DNA of 49,094 bases from the NCBI GenBank assembly GCA_945902735.1, contig CAMDNF010000005.1, positions 1-49,094 on the forward strand. Direction: 5' to 3'. This DNA comes from Rhizobium sp. Q54 (GTDB lineage: Bacteria; Pseudomonadota; Alphaproteobacteria; UBA828). Positions 349 to 33,649 of the stretch are shown here, in pieces. A program made the translations under genes and the position numbers. The stretch's first letter is position 1, and every line of letters starts with the position of its first letter. The notes beneath the pieces are model-generated. The model did no database searches. It saw only the letters and a program-made list of their open reading frames with translations, and was not told the DNA's origin.

Positions 349-3300
349 GGCGCTGGTTCCACCGACCACTCGCCGATGCGCGCCAGATGGGCGTAATCCT
401 GATAGGGCCTGATGAGCGAGGGCCGCGGCTCGACGCGATAGGGCATAGTGGGGTCGTCGAAGCCCGCGACATAATCTTGCAGCCGTGCGAGCAGGCGGCG
501 CGCCAATGCCTCGGCGTCCTTGCCGACGCGTATGACCTTGCCGGGCTCCTCGCCGCCACTTAAGCGCCAATATTCAAGCGCGGTGACCGGTGCGTCCGGC
601 ACGGCGGCGCCGAAGCCGCGGGCCAACGCAATTGCGGCCTCAAGCGGCAATTGAGCGCGCTTGCCGTTTTCCACGTCGTTCTTCGAGGGTACCGTGCCGG
701 TCTTGTAGTCGATGATGACGAGGGCGCCGTCGGCCTTGCGGTCGATGCGGTCGGCCTTGGCGCTTAGGGTGAAGGTGCCGCCCGGCGCGTCGAAACTAAG
801 CGTGCCACTAATTTCGGTTGCGCAAGGATAGGTGCCTTCGGCGCGACGCTCGCGTTCAGCCTCGATGAACCAAGCTGCAATCCGTTCAAAACGCGGCCAC
901 CAAAACGCCATGATGGTCGGCCGATGCGCCCGCGCGGCAAAGCGTGCGCGGCCCGCCTCAATCAATTGCGCCAAGGCATGGTTGGGCAAATCTCTTGGAT
1001 GGTCGCGCACAAAGGCATCGAACACGTCGTGAATCAAACTGCCGCGCTCGGCCGCGCCTGGGTCGGCATCGAGCTCATCAAGCGGCTTAAGACGCAGAAT
1101 GTAGCGCGCATAGATCGAATAGGGGTCGGCGAGCCAGGTTTCGACCGCCGTGACCGAGAGCTGCCTCGGTCGCGTGTGCAGTGGCGGGCGGGGCGCGGGT
1201 GGGGCGCAGGGTTCAACGCGCGCTGGGGCATCAAGCGCGCTCTGCCAGGCGCGAAGATGATGCGCATCGATTTGCGCACGCGCGTTGGGTGCGACAAGGC
1301 CGATCAAGGCATCGAGCCGCGTCAGCCAACGCGAGGCGATGGTGGGCGAGGTGCCGGCCCGACGCGCGCGCGTCAGCAAGACCTCAGGCGCGCCGCAACA
1401 TTGCACGAAGTCGTGCGCCGCGAGGCCGATGCGTCGCTCCGGTGGCGACAGGCCGACCGCTGCTCGCATCGGCCGGCTGAGCCAGGGGTCGGGTTCCGGT
1501 TCAGGCGGCCAGCTGCCTTCGTTCAAGCCGCCGAGGATCATCAAATCCGCGCTTTGCAGGCGTGCTTCGAGCGGCCCCCAAATAGAGAGGCGTGAATGGC
1601 GCGGCCGTGACGGGCGAACCATGAACCCCGCCATGAGCGCTTCGATCAGAGCGGGGTAGGAGGCGGGCGCGATCTCCGGCGCGTCGGCGGCGGCCTCGGC
1701 GATGTCCGCGACAAAACTTGCGGCGCGTTCACCCGCTTCACCGGCCCATAGCCGGCTCGGGCCATGGTCCCGATCGGTCGCGGCAAGCCACTCGGCGAGG
1801 CCGATATGAGCGGCGAGCAAGGCCGCGATCGTCGCGCGTGGCGCCGCCATTGAATCGGCGAAGGGTTTATAGGCTTGAGTCACGCCATCGAGCCATGAGC
1901 TCAACGCGGCAAGTTCTTTGCGACGCGGCTCCGCTTTGGTTTCGGCGATGGCGTCGTCGAGCGCGGCGCCCACGCCGTCAAAGCCTGGCGATGGGCGCGG
2001 GCCGCGCAAACAGGCGAGTTCAAGCGCCCGCACATGGCGGCGAAATAGTTCAGGTGCCAGGCCGCCGGCGGCGAGCGGGTGTTTCAACAGCGCGAGGAGC
2101 GAGACCGGCGCCACTTGTTCGGTCGCGAGCGCGCCGATCAGACGGAGAAAGGCGCCGGGCGGCGTCAGCGCGAGTGGTCGCCCGGCCGAATCATCGACCT
2201 CGATGCCATAGCGTTCGAGCCGCGCCACGACGCGCCGCGCGAGGCCTCGATCGGCGGTAACCAACGCGGCGGTCTTGGTTGGGGTTTCGAGCGTCTCGCG
2301 TAATTTCAAGGCAATCACGCCGGCCTCGTCGTCCTCATTGGCGCATTCAACGCGCGCAAGACCGATGAGCGCGGAGGCGTCGAGTGCGGGCAAATTACGC
2401 CAGACTTCGGTGGTTATTGCTGGGCGCAACGCCTCGGCGATTAGCGCGAGTCGCGCGGCGCAAGAGGGTGGCGTCGCGCCGAGATCGGTAACCATGCTGC
2501 GCGGGACACCGAGCCGTTCGGTCAAATTCTTCAACCCGAATTGCGGGTGCGAGGGGTCGAGCGCGGCCCAAGCCTCGTCATCAAGCGTGCGGTCGAGCCC
2601 AGGCAACACGACCGCGCCTTTGGGGAGGCGGGCGATGGCGGCGATCAAATCGGCGGTCGCCGGCAGGCTACCGGTCGAGCCCGCGGCAATCACGGGGTGC
2701 GGTGGTGGATCTTTGGTCCAGCGCTGGGCCAAAGCTTCAAGCGCGGCATTGCGCCGCGCGACATGGTCCATCAAGCCAATGCGCTCGAGGAGAAGCGGCC
2801 ATTCATGCGTCACGATGGCGAGAAACGCGACGATCTCCTGCCAATGCGCGGCGAAGCGCTCCGGCGCCAGATCCTTGAGCGCCGCGGGATCGACGCGCTC
2901 GCTGTGTAATTCGTCAATAAAGCGTCCAAGTGCGCGAGCCAGCCGCGCCGCTTCATCGGCGCGCACGTTGGGCCTGCCGGTCTTTTTCATTTGCCACGCC
3001 ATGACGAGGCGCATCAGAAGAAAATCGCGCGATAGCGGATCGGCAACGGGCGGCAGAGCATCGAGCCCGCCAATGCCATCGCCATCGAGGCTCGGCTCGT
3101 CATCGTCGAGATCGCCAAAGGGGCGAATGCGCGGTAGAAGCGTCGCCCGCGTGCCGCTTCGGCGCACCAAAGCATCGCTCAGCGCGCGTGCGGCACGGCG
3201 TGTCGGGACGAAAATCACCGCGCGCGCAATCGCCAAAGGATCAGCGGAATTGAGGCTTAAGGGTCCGTCGCCGAGCAACGCTTCAGCCAGGGTGTCGGCA

Positions 3301-9632: not shown

Positions 9633-11417
9633 TCAGCCGAGGGCGTTAAAATCTTCGATCAGCGCGGCGATCACGCCCGAATCCGATTGCTGCATGATTT
9701 GTTCGGCGCGCCGGCCGGCTTCGGCCAGGTCGATCTCGAGGATGCGCTGCTTGACCCGCGGCAGGCTGGGCGCGGCCATTGACAGGTCGCGCAGGCCAAG
9801 CCCGAGGAGGAGCGCGGTAAAGCGTGGATTGCCGGCCATTTCACCGCATAGATTGACCGGTATGCCGGCGCGCTGGGCGGCTACCGTCGCAAATTGGATC
9901 AGCCGCAATACGGCGGGGTGGAGCGAATCGTAAAGGTGTGCGACTTGCTCGTCGCCCCGGTTGATCGCGAGCGTGTACATGGTCAGGTCGTTGGTGCCGA
10001 GCGAAAAAAAGTCCGACACCTGCGCGAGGGCATCAGCGGCTAGGGCGGCGCCTGGGGTTTCGATCATCACGCCAACGGGCGGCAGCTCCTTGCCAATGGC
10101 AATGCGGTTGCGCGCCAGGCGCCGGGCAACGCGGGGGATCAATTCCCTAACCGCCTTGACCTCGCCGACCGTGGTGATCATGGGCAGCAAGATCCTGACT
10201 GGACCATGGGCATTGGCCCGCAACATGGCGCCGATCTGTGCTTCGAGGAGTGGGCGTACTTTGAGCGAGAGGCGAATGGCGCGCAGCCCAAGCGCCGGAT
10301 TGACGCTCGGGCTCAAATGCTCGCCGAGCGAATAGGCGAGCTTGTCTGAGCCGACATCGAGGGTGCGGACCGTGACCGGGCGCCCCGCCATGCCTTCGAC
10401 GATCGTACGCAGGGCCTGATATTGCTCATCTTCATCGGGCGGCTGGTCGCGGTTCATGTACATGAATTCGCTGCGAAGTAAGCCGATGCCTTCGGCGCCA
10501 GCGGCGTTGGCAAGCCCGAGCTCGGTCGGTAGTTCGAGATTGCATTGCAGCCCGATGCGGTGGCCATCCCGTGTGATCGCCGCGACGCCGCGCAGCCGAT
10601 CGAGTTGACGTTGCCGGCGTAACAAAGCCTCGCGCCGGCGCTCATAGCGCCCGACCGTCTCCGGCGAGGGGTTGATCACCACTTGGCCGCGCGTGCCATC
10701 AACAATGATCAGATCCCCCGGCCGCGCCACGGTTACCAGGCTTGGGACGCCAAGCACCGCAGGCAGGCCGAGCGAGCGAGCCATGATGGCCGTGTGGCCT
10801 TCGGCGCCGCCCAAAGCCGAGGCAAAGCCCCCGACCTTGGTCGGGTCCATCAGCGCGGTATCGGCTGGGGTGATCTCCTCGGCGATGATGATGGCGCCCT
10901 GCGGCAAAGAAGAAAACGCTAGGTAGGGTACTTTTGATAAATTGCGCACGATGCGCGTGCCGACTTCGTGCACATCGTCGATCCGGCTCGCCAAATAGCG
11001 ATCGCTGACCTCGGCAAAGGCTTGGCCGATTTCACCCAGCTCCGCCTGCACGGCGGCCTCGGCATTGATATGTTGGCGCCGGATTCGCTCGATAACACCG
11101 CGCACCAGGCGCGAGCTCTTGAGCATTTGAAGGTGGGCGTCGAGCAAATAGCTCAGCTCCTCGGCCGCCGCGCCCGGCAGGCCGCTCGCTTTGCCGCGGA
11201 GCTTGCGAACTTGTTTCGCCGACGCCGCCACCGCTTCTTCGAAGCGAGCAACTTCACCGGCGATCTCATGCTCGGCCAAACCATATTCCGGCAAGTCGAT
11301 CAGGCCGCGTTCGACGACATGGGCGGGCCCGATCGCAATGCCTGCCGACACGCCAAGCCCATCGAACCGGTGTTCGAACGCTTCAGGCAGGCCGGCGATC
11401 TCTTCGTACACGTCCAA
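9633..11417 (-). CDS. ptsI: PTS enzyme I (PEP-protein phosphotransferase) without a GAF domain
   Basis: Phospho-His motif GHTAIMAR, GIGLLRSEF, RTLDVG, NPALGLRAIR, GTNDL and CGEMAG. Start probably TTG 11417 or GTG 11411, since the 11489 start overlaps HPr. Confidence 0.92.
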   Translation of the reverse strand: MDVYEEIAGLPEAFEHRFDGLGVSAGIAIGPAHVVERGLIDLPEYGLAEHEIAGEVARFEEAVAASAKQVRKLRGKASGLPGAAAEELSYLLDAHLQMLKSSRLVRGVIERIRRQHINAEAAVQAELGEIGQAFAEVSDRYLASRIDDVHEVGTRIVRNLSKVPYLAFSSLPQGAIIIAEEITPADTALMDPTKVGGFASALGGAEGHTAIMARSLGLPAVLGVPSLVTVARPGDLIIVDGTRGQVVINPSPETVGRYERRREALLRRQRQLDRLRGVAAITRDGHRIGLQCNLELPTELGLANAAGAEGIGLLRSEFMYMNRDQPPDEDEQYQALRTIVEGMAGRPVTVRTLDVGSDKLAYSLGEHLSPSVNPALGLRAIRLSLKVRPLLEAQIGAMLRANAHGPVRILLPMITTVGEVKAVRELIPRVARRLARNRIAIGKELPPVGVMIETPGAALAADALAQVSDFFSLGTNDLTMYTLAINRGDEQVAHLYDSLHPAVLRLIQFATVAAQRAGIPVNLCGEMAGNPRFTALLLGLGLRDLSMAAPSLPRVKQRILEIDLAEAGRRAEQIMQQSDSGVIAALIEDFNALG

Positions 11418-11427
11418 TATCCCCGGT

Positions 11428-11736
11428 CTAGTCTTCGCCGAAGCGGCGCTCGACCAATGTGGCGAGCGCGTCGAGCGCGGCCGCGCCATCGGGGCCGCTC
11501 GCTTCGATCAAAATTTCCTGTCCCGGCCCCGCCGCCAACATCATGAGCCCTAAAATTGACGAACCCGAGACAGCGGTGCCGTTGCGCGTGACCGTGATTT
11601 CGGCGTCATAAGCGGCCGCGACTTGGACGAAACGGGCCGCCGCGCGCGCGTGCAAGCCCAGGCGGTTCGATATCGTCACAATTTTGCGTGTTTGACCGGC
11701 GCTGTTTTTGGCGGACGGATCGGCTGGCGTACTCAC
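11428..11736 (-). CDS. ptsH: Phosphocarrier protein HPr/NPr
   Basis: GLHARAAA (His15 motif) and SILGLMML (Ser46 region). Confidence 0.93.
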   Translation of the reverse strand: MSTPADPSAKNSAGQTRKIVTISNRLGLHARAAARFVQVAAAYDAEITVTRNGTAVSGSSILGLMMLAAGPGQEILIEASGPDGAAALDALATLVERRFGED

Positions 11737-12143
11737 ACCGCCTCTCCGTTCAACAGGCTGCTCGCCACGTTGATATATTTTCGTCCCGCTTCCTGGGCAC
11801 TCAAGACCGCTCGTTCAAGCGTCTCTTCCTTGCGTACCGATGCGAGTTTGATCAGCATCGGCAGGTTCATGCCGGCAATGACCTCGATCTTCGCGCGGTC
11901 GTCCATCACCGAAATCGCAAGATTGGACGGTGTACCGCCAAACATGTCGGTCAGCAGAATCACCCCGTCGCCATCGTCCACCGCGTTGATCGCCTCGATG
12001 ATTTCCTTGCGTCGCCGTTCCATGTCGTCGTCCGCCCCGATGCAGATCGCGCGAATGCGTTCCTGCCGCCCGACCACATGCTCGGTCGCGGCGACAAATT
12101 CTTCGGCCAAGCGGCCATGCGTAACGAAGACCAAACCAATCAT
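11733..12143 (-). CDS. PTS EIIA component, mannose/fructose family (ManX-like)
   Basis: MIGLVFVTHG, LTDMFGGTPSN and GMNLPML motifs; start taken at ATG 12143. Confidence 0.9.
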   Translation of the reverse strand: MIGLVFVTHGRLAEEFVAATEHVVGRQERIRAICIGADDDMERRRKEIIEAINAVDDGDGVILLTDMFGGTPSNLAISVMDDRAKIEVIAGMNLPMLIKLASVRKEETLERAVLSAQEAGRKYINVASSLLNGEAV

Positions 12144-12182
12144 GAGGAAATCCGTTTCAAAGAACGTGCGACGAACGATCAA

Positions 12183-13094
12183 TCAATCGCCGATCGAGGC
12201 CGAGCGCTCAAGATCGCGATGACGCAGGCTGGCGGTCCATCCGGCGGCGCGTAGTGTTTCGACCAGCCGCCCGGCCACAAAGACCGAGCGATGACGCCCG
12301 CCCGTGCAGCCAATGGCAATGGTCAAATAGGATTTGCCCTCCCGTTCATAGGCGGGCAATAGCGGATTCAACATATCGGTCAACGTAGCAAAAAACGGCG
12401 CATAGGCGGAATCTCGCTCGATGAAGGCGGCGATCGGCGCATCGAGGCCGGTTCCGGCGCGCAAATTCGGATCGTAATGCGGATTGGCCAGGAAGCGAAC
12501 GTCGAACACGAGATCAGCCTCAGGCGGCAGGCCATGACGATAGCCAAATGAAACGATGTGAACGCCGAGGCCGGCCGCGCTTGAGATCGAAAAATGCCCC
12601 GTCAGCAGGCGGCGAAGATCGGGTAGACCAAGGCCCGAGGTGTCGACCACTAGATCGGCCCGATTGCGCGCCCAGATCAGACGCTCGCGTTCGAGCCGAA
12701 TGCCATCGCTGACCGGGCGATCATCGGCCAGGGGGTGGCGCCGCCGGGTCTCGGTGAAGCGTCGGCGCAAGATCTCGTCATCGCTTTCGAGAAACAGCAG
12801 CGTGGTGTCGAGGCTGTCGCGATCGAGCAGGGGTGCCAAATAGCGTTCGAAGTGCTCGACATCGAATTCACGCGTACGCACATCGGTGCAGATCGCCAAG
12901 GGCCGCCGCGTGTCGGTATCACCGGAGGTGGAGGCGCCCCGCACCAGGCCGCCGATCAAGGTGACGGGCAAATTGTCGACCACCTCATAACCCAGATCCT
13001 CGAGGACCTTGAGCGCCGTCGATTTGCCCGCTCCCGACATGCCGGTGACAATGACCAGACGCTGCCTTTGGGATCGATCGGGGTTTCGGGTCAT
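12183..13094 (-). CDS. rapZ: RNase adapter RapZ (P-loop NTPase, YvcJ/YhbJ family)
   Basis: GMSGAGKS, DNLP, TRRRHPL, SFGYRHG, DVRFLANP and GCTGGRHRSV motifs; ATG 13094 chosen because it follows the hprK stop. Confidence 0.93.
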   Translation of the reverse strand: MTRNPDRSQRQRLVIVTGMSGAGKSTALKVLEDLGYEVVDNLPVTLIGGLVRGASTSGDTDTRRPLAICTDVRTREFDVEHFERYLAPLLDRDSLDTTLLFLESDDEILRRRFTETRRRHPLADDRPVSDGIRLERERLIWARNRADLVVDTSGLGLPDLRRLLTGHFSISSAAGLGVHIVSFGYRHGLPPEADLVFDVRFLANPHYDPNLRAGTGLDAPIAAFIERDSAYAPFFATLTDMLNPLLPAYEREGKSYLTIAIGCTGGRHRSVFVAGRLVETLRAAGWTASLRHRDLERSASIGD

Positions 13095-13098
13095 CGGT

Positions 13099-13572
13099 TC
13101 AGGCCGATCGACGGTTGAGGCCGGGTCCAAGCGCGGTCTCGGCTGGCTGAAGGCGGCCGTTGACCAGCTGCGCCGCCATGCGGAGTTTCGCTACGGCGGA
13201 TGATTCGAATGGCGCGAGGGTCAAGGCGGCGATCCCGACCCCATCGATGACGGTTTCCACGAGATTTGGCAGGCGCGCGATGTTTGTGTTTGGTGCGAGA
13301 TCGACGAGCAGGCCGATGCTTGCCTCGGGCAGATTGGGGAGTGTGAGGATGCCAAGGCCCCGCACCTCCAGCAGGCCGGCCAGCGCCTCGGGGGCCTGCG
13401 CCATGAGACGATTGCCCTTGGGGGTTAGCGCCACCTGATCGTCCGCCACAAGGGTGGCGCCGGCCTCGATGAGGCGCAAGGCAAGATCGGATTTTCCGGC
13501 GCCAGAAGGGCCGCGCAGCAAAATGCCGACACCTTCGAAAACGACGCAACTCGCGTGATGGAGCCGGCTCAT
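13099..13572 (-). CDS. hprK: Short HPr kinase/phosphorylase (alphaproteobacterial type)
   Basis: HASCV, GPSGAGKSDLAL, LVADD and LEVRGLGI motifs. Confidence 0.9.
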   Translation of the reverse strand: MSRLHHASCVVFEGVGILLRGPSGAGKSDLALRLIEAGATLVADDQVALTPKGNRLMAQAPEALAGLLEVRGLGILTLPNLPEASIGLLVDLAPNTNIARLPNLVETVIDGVGIAALTLAPFESSAVAKLRMAAQLVNGRLQPAETALGPGLNRRSA

Positions 13573-13580
13573 TGGCGGGG

Positions 13581-13609
13581 AAGGTCGCGCCGTCGTCCAG
13601 CCATGTCAA
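13581..13609 (-). promoter_or_regulatory. Candidate sigma70 promoter for hprK
   Basis: TTGACA (13609-13604), 17-nt spacer, GACCTT (13586-13581), then 8 nt to the ATG. Confidence 0.4.
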
Positions 13610-13627
13610 CCAGCGGACTGTGGGCGC

Positions 13628-14092
13628 TCAAGCGGCCGAACGGGCGGGCGGCTCGATGAGGAGGGCGAAAATCGCTTCGGCGCGGTCCGACCCGCGCAGG
13701 CGTTCGACAACTTCGTCCTTGCGCAGGAGACGTGAAATGTTCGAGAGCGCCTTGAGGTGGTCAGCCCCGGCGCTCGCCGGCGCAAGCAGCATGAAAACGA
13801 GATCGACCGGGTGACCATCCACCGATTCGAAATCGACCGGCTGTTCGAGGCGGGCAAAAACCGTCACCAAATGGTCTAGACCGGGCAAGCGCGCATGCGG
13901 AATGGCGATACCCTTGCCGCTTCCGGTCGAGCCAAGTCGCTCGCGCTCAAGCAGCGCATCGAAAATCGTCCGCTCGTGCAGACCCGTCAGTTCGGCGGCA
14001 CGCGCCGCCAGCTCCTGTAGCAGGTGCTTCTTGCTGGTCGCACGCAAACGCGGCAAGACGCCGCGCTGCTGAAGAATTTCCCGAATTTCCAT
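13628..14092 (-). CDS. ptsN: PTS EIIA-Ntr nitrogen regulatory protein
   Basis: RERLGSTG, GIAIPHAR and HLKALS motifs; start ATG 14092 or GTG 14098. Confidence 0.93.
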   Translation of the reverse strand: MEIREILQQRGVLPRLRATSKKHLLQELAARAAELTGLHERTIFDALLERERLGSTGSGKGIAIPHARLPGLDHLVTVFARLEQPVDFESVDGHPVDLVFMLLAPASAGADHLKALSNISRLLRKDEVVERLRGSDRAEAIFALLIEPPARSAA

Positions 14093-14297
14093 CGGCACTC
14101 CGTCCTGGACAACTTGGCTCGCTGGGCTCAGCGCCCACTAAACCCCAGGGTCCTTATGATCGTTGCGCGACATCGGCTATTTTACGGTGCCGCCGCCTGG
14201 TCTGTCGATTGCTCGCGATGTTCTCGTTTGCACTCGCCGGGCCGGGGTCACATGGCGCTCTATGTGGGGTCGAGCACCCCGGGCGAAAAGGCGGCGC

Positions 14298-14340
14298 ACC
14301 ATAGGTCCCCCTAACCCAGTGAGTCAATCGGGACCCGATT
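14298..14340 (-). promoter_or_regulatory. Candidate sigma70 promoter for ptsN with an overlapping palindrome
   Basis: TTGACT (14327-14322), 18-nt spacer, TATGGT (14303-14298); palindrome AATCGGG-A-CCCGATT at 14326-14340. Confidence 0.5.
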
Positions 14341-14374
14341 TTGCCCCGCCAACTACTGATTTTTTCTAACTATT

Positions 14375-15886
14375 TTAATTGGTTAGGGAATTTTCGATCG
14401 GCTCTTTTCGCTTCAGGCGACGACGTTCGACCGAAGACGGGATGCGCATGGCTTCGCGGTATTTTGCTACCGTTCGCCGCGCAATCGCGACCCCGCCTTT
14501 GCTCAGTGCGGCAGCAATATGGTCGTCAGAGAGGATTCGGTTCGGGGGTTCGGAATCGATCATCGCCTTGATTCGGTGCCGAACCGCCTCGGCGGCGTGA
14601 GTTTCGCCCCCGGCGCTGCTTTGCAGGGCGGCCGAAAAGAAGAATTTGAGCTCGAACACGCCACGTGGGCAGGCAAGATATTTGTTGGCGACCACGCGGC
14701 TGACCGTGCTCTCGTGCACACCGATCAAAGTGGCGATATCGCGCAAGGTCATGGGGCGCATTTCACGCACGCCGTGCGAGAAAAAATTCGACTGTTGTTC
14801 AACTAATGCGCGACCCACGTTCATCACCGTTCGCGCGCGCTGGACCAGCGAACGAACCAACCAGTTCGCCGATTGAAGTTGCGTGGTCAGGAATTGATGC
14901 TCGGCCGGCGTGCGGACGCCCTTGGTCAGAAGAGAAAAATAGCCTGTATTCACGATCACCTTGGGCATGGTGTCGGGGTTGAGCTCGACCTGCCAGGAGC
15001 CGTCGCGCATGGGCCGTACAAAAATGTCGGGAATGACGGTCGGCGCTGGCTCGGCACCGAAGGCGCGTCCGGGCTTGGGTTCGAGCCGTTTGATTTCGGC
15101 GATCATGTCGGCGATATCCTCGTCCGACACTTGGCATTGGGCTTTCAAGCTGGCGAAGTTCCGCGCGGCGAGCAAATCGAGATGGTCGAGAAATGTGCTC
15201 ATGACCGGGTCGAGACGATTTTTCTCGGCGAGCTGAAGCGCCAGACACTCGCGTAAAGACCGGGCGAAGACACCCGTTGGCTCGAAGCGATGCAAAATGG
15301 TGATCGTCTGCTCAATGCGCGAAGGCTCACAGCCGAGTTGCGTCGCGACGGCCAAAAGGTCGGCCGGTAAATAGCCCGCCTCGTCAATCAGGTCGATCAG
15401 CCGGCTGCCGATCAACAAATCAATGGGGTCGCTGCAGCCCACCCGCAGCTGGGACAGCAAGTGCTCGCGCAGCGTAGGGCCATCCGAGGCGGCCTGATCA
15501 AGGCGATCGCCCTCATCACCGCTTGGCGCGCCACCCGCGCGCGCCCAACGCCCGGCATCGCCCGGTGCACTATCGGCATCCCACATGGCCTCCGGCGTAA
15601 CATCAAGCCCGGCGGCATCGGGGCCTTCGGCCTCGAGCCGGTTCATGGCCTGATCGGTGGCAACCGGCGTGCCTGCCTCAAGCGCGGTTGGCGCTGGTGA
15701 ATCGCTTTCGCTGGCGCCATCGGTCTCCTCGCGCTCAAGCAAGGGGTTACGTTCGAGCTCTTCTTGGATATAGGCCTGAAGTTCTTGCGCGCCGAGCTGA
15801 AGCAGTTTGATCGACTGCTGGAGCTGCGGCGTCATAACCAGCGCCTGCCCTTGTTTAAGGCTGAGCTGCTGCTTCACGGTGGCCAT
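14375..15886 (-). CDS. rpoN: RNA polymerase sigma-54 factor
   Basis: Region I MTPQLQQSIKLLQL, HESTVSR and the RpoN box ARRTVAKYRE. Confidence 0.98.
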   Translation of the reverse strand: MATVKQQLSLKQGQALVMTPQLQQSIKLLQLGAQELQAYIQEELERNPLLEREETDGASESDSPAPTALEAGTPVATDQAMNRLEAEGPDAAGLDVTPEAMWDADSAPGDAGRWARAGGAPSGDEGDRLDQAASDGPTLREHLLSQLRVGCSDPIDLLIGSRLIDLIDEAGYLPADLLAVATQLGCEPSRIEQTITILHRFEPTGVFARSLRECLALQLAEKNRLDPVMSTFLDHLDLLAARNFASLKAQCQVSDEDIADMIAEIKRLEPKPGRAFGAEPAPTVIPDIFVRPMRDGSWQVELNPDTMPKVIVNTGYFSLLTKGVRTPAEHQFLTTQLQSANWLVRSLVQRARTVMNVGRALVEQQSNFFSHGVREMRPMTLRDIATLIGVHESTVSRVVANKYLACPRGVFELKFFFSAALQSSAGGETHAAEAVRHRIKAMIDSEPPNRILSDDHIAAALSKGGVAIARRTVAKYREAMRIPSSVERRRLKRKEPIENSLTN

Positions 15887-28205: not shown

Positions 28206-29075
28206 ATGAAAAAAATTGGCCGACTGGGCGCTTGGGTTGCCGCCGACTCTTTTGGCAAAGACGAAATCGCCGCGCTCGCGCAGGGCGTGGAGCGGCTCAA
28301 CTACGACACGCTCTGGTATCCCGAGGCCGTGGGCTATGAAACGTTCTGTTATGGCGGGTTCGCGCTCGCGCAGACCGATCGGCTTCGCGTCGCGAGCGGC
28401 ATTGCTAATATTTACGCGCGCGACGCCGTGGCGGCGATCGCAGGCCACGATTCGCTCAACAATCTCTATGACGGCCGGTTCATTCTCGGCCTCGGCGTTT
28501 CCCATGTGCCGTTGGTTGAGGGCTTTCGCGGCCATGATTATGGCAAGCCGGTCGCGACCATGCGCGCCTATCTCGACGCCATGGAAAGCGCCGCGCTGAT
28601 CATCAAGAAACCCGAACGCAATATCGTCCTCGCCGCGCTTGGGCCCAAAATGACCGCGCTCGCGGCTGAGCGCACCAATGGCGCGCATTCCTACCTCGTC
28701 ACGCCCGAGCACACGGCGCGCGCCAGAAAAATTCTGGGACCGGACAAATGGCTTTGCGTCGAACAAAAGGTCTGCCTCACCTCGAACGCGGCGCAATCAC
28801 GTGAGGTCGCGGCCCAAGTGCTCGCGCTCTATTTGCCGTGGCCCAATTATTCCAACAATTGGCTGAGCCTCGGCTTCACCAAGGACGATGTCTCAGGCCG
28901 CGGCAGCGATCGCTTTCTGGACGCCATGGTGGCCTCGGGATCGGCGGCGGATATTCGCGCCCGCCTTCAAGCGCATTTTGATGCCGGCGCCGATCATGTG
29001 TGCGTCCAGCCGCTGAACCCGGATGGGAGCAAGAGTGTCGACTGGAAAGCCCTGGAAGCCGTCGCCGGGCTTTAG
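28206..29075 (+). CDS. Luciferase-like (LLM) oxidoreductase, probable F420-dependent TIGR03620-like family
   Basis: LWYPE, ASGIANIYARD, GRFILGLGVSH, LAALGPKM, YLVTPEHT and AGADHVCVQ motifs. Confidence 0.82.
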   Translation: MKKIGRLGAWVAADSFGKDEIAALAQGVERLNYDTLWYPEAVGYETFCYGGFALAQTDRLRVASGIANIYARDAVAAIAGHDSLNNLYDGRFILGLGVSHVPLVEGFRGHDYGKPVATMRAYLDAMESAALIIKKPERNIVLAALGPKMTALAAERTNGAHSYLVTPEHTARARKILGPDKWLCVEQKVCLTSNAAQSREVAAQVLALYLPWPNYSNNWLSLGFTKDDVSGRGSDRFLDAMVASGSAADIRARLQAHFDAGADHVCVQPLNPDGSKSVDWKALEAVAGL

Positions 29076-29093
29076 GCGGTGGATTTCGGTTGA

Positions 29094-29778
29094 TTTAATG
29101 CACTGTCACCGTACTCCGAGCTATGTCGTCTGCCCAGTCGAGCGCGCAGTCGGAGTGTAAAGCTGTTTGATTTGTTCTTCGGTTCGGGGCGTATTCGAGT
29201 GGATGATATGGCTCACTCGATCGCGCATCAGCATGATAAGACCAAGCTTGAGATTCACGAGGAACGTAGTTTTTTTGTCGATAAGCGGTTCGATCGGGTG
29301 AGGACCATCGCCTCCGTGGAGATGATGCGGATAGTGAGTTTTGTTCTCGTGCAAGACGAGGCGGCGCATTGACTTGAGAAACTTGTCATCTGACGAATCA
29401 AAGGACGCGTCGAGGTGGTGTGCGAAAAAATTGCGGACGGTCGCCAATCCTTTCAGTGTGCCGCGCACCTTTTCGTCGAAGGCTTCCATCAGATACAGGA
29501 TGTCAATTTTTGGCCCGAGATTGCCGAGAGGTTTGTCGACGTTCAGCAGGTTATTAAGGATATTACCGTCGTTGCGGAATCGCTCGCGTAGAGTTCGGGT
29601 GACGGCTTCATCAAGCAAGGCCACGCCGACCACCGCCACGACTCTGGGTGAACCTGTGGCAAGTATCTCCGCAACAGCTTGATAGTGCGCTTCACGCGGA
29701 AAAATAGCCCAAGTCATGGCGCGATACTCCGATGGCAAGAAACACTGATAATCACGATTACCGTGACCATGCATTCAA
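29094..29778. repeat. Imperfect 23-bp inverted repeat pair bracketing the MtlR/HEPN-like gene
   Basis: 29094-29116 TTTAATGCACTGTCACCGTACTC versus 29756-29778 GATTACCGTGACCATGCATTCAA; 18 of 23 match as reverse complements (counted by hand). Confidence 0.6.
29121..29717 (-). CDS. MtlR/YggD-like (HEPN-fold) protein with an Rx4H motif
   Basis: ATG 29717 with GGAG upstream; pattern AVVGVALLD..L....PLG.LG.KID..Y....L..VRNFFAH; visibly more AT-rich than its neighbours. Confidence 0.65.
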   Translation of the reverse strand: MTWAIFPREAHYQAVAEILATGSPRVVAVVGVALLDEAVTRTLRERFRNDGNILNNLLNVDKPLGNLGPKIDILYLMEAFDEKVRGTLKGLATVRNFFAHHLDASFDSSDDKFLKSMRRLVLHENKTHYPHHLHGGDGPHPIEPLIDKKTTFLVNLKLGLIMLMRDRVSHIIHSNTPRTEEQIKQLYTPTARSTGQTT

Positions 29779-29926
29779 TTGAAAGCGCCGCTTCGTGGTC
29801 GGGCGGGTGCACCATTGGGCCACGCTTGCGGGCGCGGTCGGCGCAACGCGCATCATCTCCACAATCACCGCGACCCCGTGGCGTCGAGGCCCAAAACGAA
29901 CGCTGACTGATGCTTGGCGGTTCCGC

Positions 29927-30298
29927 CTATTTGCGGCTGGCGTAGGTGGCGTCATCGATCACGAAACGCCAGAGGCCATCCGCGCCGCGACGCAGCACTT
30001 CGGCCGCGAGCCCTTGCATCACCACCGCGCCGGTCGGATCGGTCGAATGCCACTCGGTTCGCACCAAGGCAGTGTCGCCCGCCTGCCAGCACGATACGCA
30101 CCGACACACGGCCTTGTTCGGTTGCGTCATCATGGCCGATAGCGTGGCCTCGATCTCGGCCTTGCCCTTGACCTGCACCTTGCCGTCCATGGTCAGGACC
30201 GCCTGATCGTCATAGAGCGCCATGATCGCGGCCTTGTTGCGCTCGTTGAAATGCCGCTCCCAGGTCTTGGACATCTCGGTCGGCTGCTTTACACCCAT
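29927..30298 (-). CDS. NTF2-like protein (YybH/DUF4440/SnoaL-like)
   Basis: ALYDDQAVL, GDTALV and EVLRRGADGLWRFVIDD; RBS GGGGAG. Confidence 0.8.
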   Translation of the reverse strand: MGVKQPTEMSKTWERHFNERNKAAIMALYDDQAVLTMDGKVQVKGKAEIEATLSAMMTQPNKAVCRCVSCWQAGDTALVRTEWHSTDPTGAVVMQGLAAEVLRRGADGLWRFVIDDATYASRK

Positions 30299-31616: not shown

Positions 31617-32111
31617 TTATTGTTGCGTTGTTGGCGGCGTCTCCGCCTCGTCATGGCGTGGCCCGCGGCGATCATCGCGTTTGGCACCGGCAGTGAAATA
31701 GGCTTTCCGGTCGTCTGGCGGCAGCGCAAGCGCGAGTTCCTTCTGAAGCGTGGCGATCATGGCTTGGGCCGCCGCGCGGTGTGTGGTCAGGGCCATCTGC
31801 GCCGCCTCAAGCGCGGCGCCATCGATCTGATCAGCGGTCAATAAACGACGGATCTCCTGGCGCAATTCGCGCGTTGCCTTGAAGGCTTCGCGAAGCTTTG
31901 CGTCGTGGGCCACGCGAATGTCATCGACGATCTTCTGGGCTTCGGGCGAAATCGCGTCGCGCGCCGCCTCGCGGTCGAACCACCGCGAGCCCTGGCCGTG
32001 ATGCCCCGACCCGCCTGCCCAGCCACCGATGAACATGCCGCCCAACAGAACGTTAAGCCCGAGGGAGGCAAGCAGCACCAGCCCCACGATATGGCGTTTG
32101 CCGAGCGTCAT
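31617..32111 (-). CDS. Periplasmic heavy-metal sensor family protein (Metal_resist/CnrX/Spy-like helical protein)
   Basis: N-terminal anchor LLASLGLNVLLGG, helical domain, LPPDDRK motif; last gene of an ECF operon. Confidence 0.7.
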   Translation of the reverse strand: MTLGKRHIVGLVLLASLGLNVLLGGMFIGGWAGGSGHHGQGSRWFDREAARDAISPEAQKIVDDIRVAHDAKLREAFKATRELRQEIRRLLTADQIDGAALEAAQMALTTHRAAAQAMIATLQKELALALPPDDRKAYFTAGAKRDDRRGPRHDEAETPPTTQQ

Positions 32112-32545
32112 GACAAATCCCCGTCGTCGAATGTATCGCTCAGGCCCAAGACATCGACCTCATCCGAGGCCGAGGCGGCGATATCGGCCCGACCAAAGGT
32201 GACGCCAAGCGAAATACCGAGGGCCGCTATCAACGCGAATGCCGCGGCCGGTTGCCAGGCCGCGCCGAACGGCCATAGCGCACCAAAGCCCTGGCGCCAC
32301 AGCGCGGGCTTGGCGCGCGCGATCAAGCGCGCTTTCAGCGCGGGCGAGGGGGCGATTGCTGAGGCCTCATCAAGCAGAGCGTCGAGTGCGAGCGCCTGGT
32401 TGAACAAAAGGCGCGCGGCGCCATCGCGCGCGATCAGGGCCTCGGCGGTTGAACGCGCGGGCTCGGGCCAGCGGCGCAGATCGCCACCATAGGCATCGAG
32501 CAATGTGCCGAGGCGTTCTAAAGTCATCAGCGTATCGTTACTCAT
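32108..32545 (-). CDS. Putative single-pass anti-sigma factor
   Basis: LLDAYGGDLRRWP N-terminal motif and one TM helix; overlaps the stop of the ECF sigma gene. Confidence 0.7.
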   Translation of the reverse strand: MSNDTLMTLERLGTLLDAYGGDLRRWPEPARSTAEALIARDGAARLLFNQALALDALLDEASAIAPSPALKARLIARAKPALWRQGFGALWPFGAAWQPAAAFALIAALGISLGVTFGRADIAASASDEVDVLGLSDTFDDGDLS

Positions 32546-33177
32546 TCTACACTCCCCAGAAGATCGGGTTTGAGGCTCGCGAGGCGCGTTCGCAGCGTGC
32601 GGCGCGCGCGGGCCAATAAGGATTCGAGCGCTTCGATGCTGACGCCGAGAATCGCCGCAGCTTCGGCGGCGGCGACTTGCTCGTAATGCACCAAGGCCAA
32701 GGCGGCACGTTGGCGTTCGGGCAGGGCCTGCAATTCACGATCCACCAAGGCGGTCACCTGGCTGCGCTGGTGGGCGGTGTGCGGTGTTTCGCGTGAATCG
32801 GGCAATTCGGGATCCAATTCGCTGGTCTGTCGCATCGGCCGTCTTAACTCGTCGAGACAAAGATTGTGCACGACGGTGTAAAGCCAAGTGCTGATTCGCG
32901 CCTCGGGCCGCCAGCGCCCCGCCTGCTTCCACAGGCGTAAAAAAGCCTCTTGCGAGATGTCTTCGGCTTGGCTGCGATTGCCGAGCAGGCGGAAGGCGAG
33001 ACCGACCGCGCGGGAAAGGTGGCGCTCCACCAGAACACGCGCGGCGTCTTCATCGCCGGCCGCGGTACGGCGCATCAATTCGCCATCTGCCGCGGCGCCT
33101 TGCTCCATCGGCCTAGTCGAGCGCGGTTCGGACCCGCCGTCAATCCATGTCGCGGTTATCGTCGTGCTTACGCCCAT
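32542..33177 (-). CDS. ECF RNA polymerase sigma factor
   Basis: Sigma2 AEDISQEAFLRLW and STWLY; sigma4 LPERQRAAL...ESLLARARRTL. Alternative start ATG 33108. Confidence 0.92.
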   Translation of the reverse strand: MGVSTTITATWIDGGSEPRSTRPMEQGAAADGELMRRTAAGDEDAARVLVERHLSRAVGLAFRLLGNRSQAEDISQEAFLRLWKQAGRWRPEARISTWLYTVVHNLCLDELRRPMRQTSELDPELPDSRETPHTAHQRSQVTALVDRELQALPERQRAALALVHYEQVAAAEAAAILGVSIEALESLLARARRTLRTRLASLKPDLLGSVE

Positions 33178-33601
33178 GACCGCGTGCCGCTTTAAGTTCG
33201 TCCGCGCTTAGGACGCCATCCTTATCCGCATCAAGCTTGGCGAATCTCGGATCGGGGCGCGCTTTCAGCTCGGCCTCGGTGACCGCGCCATCTTTATCGG
33301 TATCGAGCAAATCGAAGAACGCCTTCGCGCGCGCCTCGCGGCGTTTCTCGCGTGCTTCCTGCATTTCCTCGAAGGTGACTTTGCCATCGCTGTTCAAGTC
33401 CGATTCCATCAATTTTGCGCTGTGGCGGGCCTTGAATTCATCGGTGCTGATTTTACCGTCGCCGTCGCTATCCATCGCCTTGAAGCGTTCTTCGGACGAA
33501 TGATGCTTCGAGCCTTCACCCGCCATGCCCGCGCCGACAAAGGCCCCGCCGACCAACAGGGCGCCAAGCGCGGCAGCCAGCGTCAATCTTGGCTTATTCA
33601 T
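33140..33601 (-). CDS. Exported EF-hand protein
   Basis: Signal peptide after ATG 33601 (RBS GAGGAG); four EF loops DSDGDGKISTDE, DLNSDGKVTFEE, DTDKDGAVTEAE and DADKDGVLSADE. Confidence 0.9.
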   Translation of the reverse strand: MNKPRLTLAAALGALLVGGAFVGAGMAGEGSKHHSSEERFKAMDSDGDGKISTDEFKARHSAKLMESDLNSDGKVTFEEMQEAREKRREARAKAFFDLLDTDKDGAVTEAELKARPDPRFAKLDADKDGVLSADELKAARGHGRKHDDNRDMD

Positions 33602-33649
33602 GCTCTGATCTCCTCGGGGACAACCGCGCTGATCGCGCAACTCTGAACG

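Follow-up and report, generated by a model that had tools for sequence, protein, structure and literature searches.

A solo HEPN gene between inverted repeats

The window analyzed here is a 49,094-nt stretch of the Rhizobium sp. Q54 genome (contig CAMDNF010000005.1, positions 1 to 49,094). Within it, a 685-bp segment (29094-29778) bounded by imperfect inverted repeats carries a single gene (P0002; 29121..29717, minus strand) for a 198-aa, all-alpha protein of the MtlR/DUF4145 branch of the HEPN superfamily, as judged from an AlphaFold2 (AF2) model, from Foldseek comparisons and from the starts of its relatives. The gene takes up 597 of the 685 nt, and the non-coding remainder amounts to 27 nt plus 61 nt. 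The codons of R95-N-F-F-A-H100 (CGC AAT TTT TTC GCA CAC), the Rx4H motif of HEPN proteins, lie at 29418..29435 on the minus strand.

The same gene can be read as a longer open reading frame (ORF) of 217 aa (29121-29774, minus strand). We prefer the 198-aa frame with the ATG at 29717, because MTWAIF opens the database copy and almost every relative and because a GGAG ribosome-binding site (29727..29730, minus strand), read from the sequence, lies 9 nt before this ATG. Homologues that are over-called at the N-terminus translate a comparable stretch just ahead of the conserved MTW start. When a conserved upstream repeat was sought in these N-terminal extensions, only the ribosome-binding stretch recurred. 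A promoter scan found none, terminator-like sites were weak, and Rfam gave no match over positions 28900-30100. The antisense ORFs of the segment had no Pfam match and belonged to no family.

The repeat search returned inverted arms at 29093-29116 and 29756-29779 (24 nt, 79% complementary, 19/24 matches). Trimming one base per arm leaves positions 29094-29778 (685 bp), with the 4-bp direct repeat TTGA, a putative target-site duplication, abutting both the left arm (29090..29093) and the right arm (29779..29782). In this frame the terminal inverted repeats are 23 nt long and match at 18 of 23 positions; the left one (29094..29116) lies 4 nt past the stop codon and the right one (29756..29778) lies 38 nt upstream of the start codon. 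A core, TGCACTGTCACCGTA, is found at 29099-29113 in the left arm, and its partner, inverted and with 3 mismatches, at 29759-29773. The original prediction, made from the letters of the window, had described a lower-GC 198-aa ORF with RNFFAH and imperfect 23-bp inverted repeats at these distances from the stop and start codons, and all of it was present in the sequence as described, with the same count of matches. The right arm also overlaps a local 5-bp palindrome upstream of the gene (TCACG at 29752-29756, CGTGA at 29762-29766), which the scan flagged as a weak minus-strand site resembling a terminator (29752-29766) and which could be an operator or a transposase-binding feature.

When 70-nt flanks were placed at random in the window, 2 of 1500 trials gave an inverted repeat of 19/24 or better. 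Among 44 proxy genes of the window, the repeat that flanks the HEPN gene ranked first (19 matches vs. 17 for the next best). The search over 1.1 kb lists 33 inverted pairs, and it is the geometry that is unusual. The 15-mer core alone is weak evidence, as at least two matches to it occurred in 5 of 100 shuffles. A direct repeat of at least 4 nt abutting the best inverted repeat was found in 31 of 1500 random placements.

The 685-nt segment has a GC content of 0.518, the lowest among all stretches of this length in the 49 kb (mean 0.624, standard deviation 0.027), and GC rises to 0.67 directly outside the right arm. For the gene itself GC is 0.524, and GC at third codon positions is 0.598, compared with 0.67-0.84 in 12 neighboring genes. 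Repeat ends, direct repeat and composition step all coincide at the same two positions. In the 49 ORFs scanned we detected no domain of an MNT, an antitoxin, a transposase or an integrase, in agreement with the original prediction, which had noted that no antitoxin or MNT gene and no transposase is adjacent.

These data support that (i) the flanking repeats exceed chance expectation; (ii) the HEPN gene is an accessory, compositionally foreign insert; and (iii) the gene is solo, without a partner gene.

Nature of the repeats and of the putative insertion site

The segment lies between a native gene for an F420-dependent oxidoreductase of the luciferase-like monooxygenase (LLM) class on its left (28206..29075, plus strand; Pfam Bac_luciferase) and a gene for a SnoaL/DUF4440-like protein on its right (29927..30298, minus strand; assigned by Pfam). 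Relatives of the LLM protein were found at 91, 89, 87, 86 and 85% identity, compared with 65% for the nearest HEPN relative outside its own cluster. In the metagenome-assembled genome (MAG) of a relative, a SnoaL homologue (MSO69243.1), identical to the protein of the window at 120 of 122 positions (98%), and an LLM homologue (MSO69244.1, 89%) share one 59,732-nt contig. The two accessions are consecutive; therefore, no protein-coding gene is annotated between them, implying an empty site, as read from accession order, in which a pseudogene would not show. The original prediction had proposed that relatives be inspected for such a site, and by accession order the gene is indeed missing between the same two neighbors.

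The original prediction had also taken the repeats for repetitive extragenic palindromic (REP)-like sites, which a REP-associated tyrosine transposase (RAYT) of the Y1 type would use to capture and move cargo genes. The one observation in favor of this is that two related sequences, inverted, flank a gene. The arms form no hairpin (folding z -0.84 to +0.03, both strands), and the GTAG or CGTC tags of REPs (PMC3733652) are absent from both arms on both strands. REPs usually occur in >100 copies per genome (PMC2817692). A scan of the 49 kb with the core, at up to 3 mismatches, returned only the two arms, and a repeat search of the whole window revealed no REP-like families. No Y1_Tnp domain was present in the 49 ORFs of the window. 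To our knowledge, Y1/RAYT elements make neither terminal inverted repeats nor a flanking direct repeat, and a flanking direct repeat is present here. Within the window, the REP/RAYT explanation is largely refuted, and we consider it very improbable.

Two other candidates were rejected. An integron gene cassette would be expected neither from the folding of the segment (no attC fold) nor from its boundaries (no GTTRRRY at either), and there is no integrase. The other candidate, operator sites, was dropped as one arm lies past the stop codon.

The features that were found, namely terminal inverted repeats, an abutting TTGA pair, no internal transposase and one passenger gene, are those of mobile insertion cassettes (MICs) and of MITEs (miniature inverted-repeat transposable elements) that carry cargo. 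MICs are counted among the transposase-dependent elements (PMC6542083), a qnrS2 MIC has been described (PMC5444012), and such cassettes rely on a transposase supplied in trans (PMC6542083, PMC5444012). MIC231 and the qnrS2 cassette share with the segment the terminal repeats, the short direct repeat, the lack of a transposase and the single passenger. The segment differs from them in that it has neither a known cognate insertion sequence nor a second copy, and we infer its mobility. No MIC with HEPN cargo was met in the literature, though no search was aimed at that point. Terminal inverted repeats with a 4-bp direct repeat are the signature of cut- or copy-and-paste transposases acting in trans on a MIC, and the repeats look like transposon ends rather than REPs. 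That they mark a transposable cassette is, in our judgment, an evenly balanced proposition.

If they do, positions 29094-29778 would be a non-autonomous cassette of the MIC or cargo-carrying MITE type with a 4-bp TTGA target duplication, which would have landed in the gap between the convergent native LLM oxidoreductase and SnoaL-like genes and would be mobilized in trans by a transposase encoded elsewhere. The mobile single-gene cassette of the original prediction is retained in so far as the gene is a foreign insert, the repeats go beyond chance and the gene is absent in a relative; the REP/RAYT mechanism attached to it is not retained.

Several observations weigh against a transposable cassette. 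The terminal repeats are imperfect (18/23), the core has no further copy in the 49 kb, no transposase lies nearby, and we know of no cognate transposase for these ends. Both the inverted and the direct repeats were recognized after the fact, and a 4-nt abutting repeat arises in ∼2% of random cases. The empty site rests on accession order and not on DNA. The SnoaL neighbor is itself patchy (21 homologues; best cluster 94%, next 61%), and the relative whose LLM protein is 91% identical shows no close SnoaL. This absence, together with the 98% identity of SnoaL vs. 89% of LLM in the relative MAG, suggests a variable region: downstream of the LLM gene there seems to be a hot spot of recombination or variation, which may have been filled via other routes.

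Most of these points would be accommodated if the inverted repeat and TTGA were coincidental and the gene had been gained here, or lost in relatives, by another route, e.g., recombination. We regard this as somewhat unlikely, given that the repeat is the best of those around 44 genes, is equalled in 2 of 1500 random placements, and has its ends at the same two points as the direct repeat and the GC step.

Protein family and predicted activity

A homologue search of 5.8 billion proteins, in which relatives were counted as clusters at 90% identity, yielded 111 relatives of ∼200 aa, and the closest outside the gene's own 90% cluster was 65% identical. They are mostly metagenomic, and few are named (a Rhodospirillales MAG, Methyloceanibacter). 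In an alignment of 65 of the 111, picked by eye as full length, W3, E17, R25, R46, R95, N96, F98, H100 and R167, among others, were invariant (65/65). With thresholds of E<=1e-30, E<=1e-10 and E<=1e-3, an exhaustive profile search gave 77, 1340 and 8375 representatives, respectively. The pattern R[NDHQST]xxxH was present in 128 of the 147 best newly listed wider representatives, and most of the 19 exceptions were short sequences. The family is thus sizeable, yet its members are annotated only as "hypothetical" or, probably wrongly, as DNA-binding MltR regulators.

Thirteen of the 65 family members matched Pfam MtlR (PF05068) at E<=0.01, with a best value of 7.8e-8. With the single protein as query, the PDB sequence search returned 6kcr at E=0.18; with the family profile it returned Vibrio MtlR (3brj) at E=6.4e-4. 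The AF2 model (mean predicted local distance difference test, pLDDT, 89.7; predicted template modeling score, pTM, 0.86) is mostly helical with one small beta-hairpin. In Foldseek comparisons with the PDB, ranks 1-10 were occupied by MtlR (3brj, 6kcr) and YggD (3c8g), with template modeling (TM) scores of 0.43-0.62 and probabilities of 0.99-1.00, followed by HepS (9oij, 9oik) at ranks 11 and 14 (TM 0.43-0.46, probability 0.77-0.91). In the Atlas, its structural neighbors belong to MtlR and DUF4145 clusters. The viral model that matched best was that of an uncharacterized protein of Agrobacterium phage Atu_ph08 (TM 0.57/0.70), and 15 of the 65 relatives matched phrog_22031, a family with no function assigned.

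As judged from profiles and the predicted fold, the protein represents an uncharacterized, outlying sister family of MtlR, placed among the DUF4145-like members of the HEPN superfamily. The MtlR/HEPN-like identity given in the original prediction is borne out by profile matches, AF2 model, Foldseek and Atlas neighbors, and the structural comparison that it had suggested returned a HEPN-like fold with MtlR/YggD as the best matches. It is very probable that the gene is an acquired HEPN gene of the MtlR clade.

MtlR and YggD (PF05068; 3brj, 6kcr, 3c8g) match the fold best and, among solved structures, are alone in matching the sequence; they are likewise all-alpha and of similar size, and the position of Rx4H aligns. 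The protein of the window differs from them by its sub-cut-off scores, by the lack of a mannitol operon and by its alphaproteobacterial host, and the family as a whole differs by an invariant RNxFAH and a family-specific C-terminal part (HYPHH, RDRxSH).

The C-terminal part of the narrow family (∼residues 120-198; window 29121-29360) is conserved and lies outside the MtlR models. A His-rich stretch in it, LHExRTHYPHH, sits on the small beta-hairpin, and this part may be a sensor or a metal site. A second Rx4H-like motif, R165-D-R-V-S-H170, has an invariant R167, with H170 in at least 90% of the narrow family. Neither C-terminal motif exceeds 80% conservation in the wider family.

MtlR belongs to the HEPN superfamily, for which the Rx4-6H motif has been defined; ∼60% of MtlR proteins retain the motif, and in active HEPN sites the arginine is typically followed by a polar N, D or H (PMC3710099). 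R95-N-F-F-A-H100 conforms to Rx4-6H with a polar residue after R. In the same work of 2013, some MtlR members were predicted to be active RNases and others to be non-catalytic (PMC3710099).

The main rival to an RNase is a non-catalytic MtlR-like regulator, which would bind other proteins or RNA; the gene would then be accessory, and not a toxin or defense gene. E. coli MtlR, a protein-binding regulator, has REELNH at the aligned place and acts via contacts with CRP, EII-Mtl and HPr (PMC13421365). It keeps R...H, and therefore the motif alone is no proof of catalysis. Non-catalytic roles have been proposed for part of the family (PMC3710099), the closest solved structures are MtlR and YggD, and some sources call relatives "DNA-binding MltR family transcriptional regulator." The genes of the host's nitrogen phosphotransferase system (PTS-Ntr) lie 15-20 kb away, and the host could thus have a partner of the HPr/NPr type with which an MtlR-like protein might interact. 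The absence of a PADLOC match also fits a regulator. Set against this, neither mannitol utilization genes (mtlA, mtlD) nor another sugar operon were found among the 49 ORFs scanned. R-N-x-F-A-H is invariant in 65/65 relatives vs. ∼60% retention in MtlR proper (PMC3710099), and Vibrio MtlR carries K at the position aligned with the arginine. A regulator that depends on partners in its host would not usually be a foreign, sporadic insert. On balance, we take the regulator to be rather unlikely.

HepS and RAZR are single HEPN proteins that form complete abortive-infection systems and are inactive until a phage protein binds (PMC13043305, PMC13017515). The motif is invariant, mannitol genes are lacking and these solo HEPN proteins set a precedent; because of this, the protein is probably, by sequence and analogy, a latent RNase that acts in abortive infection or as a toxin, and less likely a regulator of the mannitol type. 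The narrower proposal of a trigger-activated RNase acting in defense or as a toxin is tentative, and we would put it somewhat below even odds.

Like the protein of the window, HepS (PMC13043305; 9oij/9oik) is a single HEPN protein of ∼200 aa, has its motif close to residue 100 and lacks a partner or inhibitor gene. Both are accessory cargo, of a prophage in HepS and of a putative mobile element here, and HepS is the next fold match after MtlR/YggD. The resemblance is structural only and weak (TM 0.43-0.46), with no sequence match. HepS is carried by the Gifsy-1 prophage, whereas the gene studied here lies among metabolic genes, in an insert of 685 bp bounded by repeats; for HepS the trigger (a tail-tip protein) and the tRNA target are established (PMC13043305). 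RAZR, or PD-T7-4 (PMC13017515), is also a single-protein defense of the same DUF4145-like HEPN branch, and its R and H residues are required for defense (PMC13017515). It differs by an N-terminal zinc finger and by Rx7H spacing (R146, H154) (PMC13017515).

A further possibility is the toxin of a toxin-antitoxin pair, whose antitoxin would be encoded elsewhere or would be hidden within the element as a small RNA or a peptide. HEPN proteins are common as toxins of such pairs (PMC3710099), and by similarity the motif stretch retrieved an MNT-HEPN pair at locus L001. MNT-HEPN (HepT/DUF86) pairs share with the protein the HEPN fold and the RNxxxH motif (...SVRNFIAH... in L001). The gene of the window differs in having no adjacent MNT gene, in belonging to another HEPN family and in encoding a larger protein. 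No MNT or other small gene adjoins it, the segment offers only 27 + 61 nt of non-coding DNA, its antisense ORFs have no family, and Rfam gave no match. We consider this explanation improbable.

Other results, like the aligned REELNH of E. coli MtlR, speak against a defense RNase of the MtlR branch. The protein itself scored below cut-off with Pfam MtlR (E=0.024; 15 bits, cut-off 25.2) and with NCBIfam MltR (NF008234; 20.8 bits, cut-off 149). The Foldseek E-values are modest (1e-3), with root-mean-square deviations of 7-10 Å. No PADLOC model matched the protein or any of its 65 relatives, and 20 wider relatives gave only weak matches (RTasHEPN in 2, DruB in 1). A tblastn search of 72,556 plasmid records and 50,697 phage records detected no homologue. 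The neighbors are metabolic, core-chromosome genes and do not form a defense island (gltDB, aconitase, ccm genes, rpoN-ptsN).

Taken with the evidence on the repeats, we favor, with a probability of about 50%, a non-autonomous MIC-like cassette of 685 bp whose sole cargo is a solo HEPN protein acting as a latent RNase. HEPN proteins usually dimerize. The protein of the window would dimerize as well, and R95, N96 and H100 would form a composite, metal-independent RNase site. It would stay inactive until triggered, e.g., by phage infection, and would then cut tRNA, rRNA or mRNA and bring about cell arrest, as in HepS and RAZR. Transposition, mobilization in trans, dimerization, RNase activity, the trigger and the role in defense are steps of this scheme that we infer.

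In calling this the best candidate for an undescribed system, the original prediction went too far: active RNases among MtlR proteins were predicted in 2013 (PMC3710099), and HepS and RAZR have been described. If the protein is a latent RNase, solo HEPN effectors would have a second branch in addition to HepS and RAZR, and the MtlR branch would comprise not only regulators but also enzymes, in line with the prediction of 2013; no test of that prediction was found in the literature. If the segment is transposable, it would be a compact case of a non-autonomous element whose sole passenger is a defense or toxin gene, and such cassettes would escape discovery based on defense islands and prophages. 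More broadly, Alphaproteobacteria may hold a class of ∼0.7-kb cassettes with terminal inverted repeats and a 4-bp duplication, mobilized in trans, whose sole cargo is a trigger-activated solo-HEPN RNase of this sister family of MtlR; we regard such a class as doubtful. Were it real, immune or toxin modules of one gene each would hitch-hike on the machinery of insertion sequences in order to spread, and not on phages, plasmids or defense islands.

Wider relatives and gene neighborhood

Three of the wider relatives have unusual layouts. P0322 (367 aa) combines DUF4145 and MtlR in tandem, a double HEPN protein. P0371 (272 aa) has a weak match to DUF4428 ahead of its MtlR domain; we take DUF4428 to be zinc-ribbon-like, in which case the arrangement would echo the layout of RAZR. 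In P0071, the stretch RNFFAHH occurs three times, 13 residues apart.

A profile scan of genome contigs with a 15-sequence alignment returned one locus, L001, which matched on the motif only. It is an unrelated, classic MNT-HEPN pair of the DUF86 type (148-814) from a Campylobacterota MAG. Directly downstream of the pair (814-3294) lies an ORF for a DnaB-like helicase of 826 aa with an apparent intein-like insert.

Elsewhere in the window, positions 9633-15886 encode an enzyme I (EI)-like phosphoenolpyruvate (PEP)-utilizing enzyme, RapZ, EIIA-Ntr (PtsN) and sigma-54, followed by lptB/lptA/lptC/kdsD-like genes. The presence of this nitrogen-PTS/rpoN cluster indicates that the window is core alphaproteobacterial chromosome. 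On the other side of the HEPN gene, a run of genes on the minus strand (31617-33640) comprises an extracytoplasmic function (ECF)-type sigma factor, an unassigned 145-aa ORF, a Metal_resist (Spy/CpxP-like) protein and an EF-hand calcium-binding protein. The 145-aa ORF is possibly an anti-sigma factor, and the run is probably an envelope or metal stress module.

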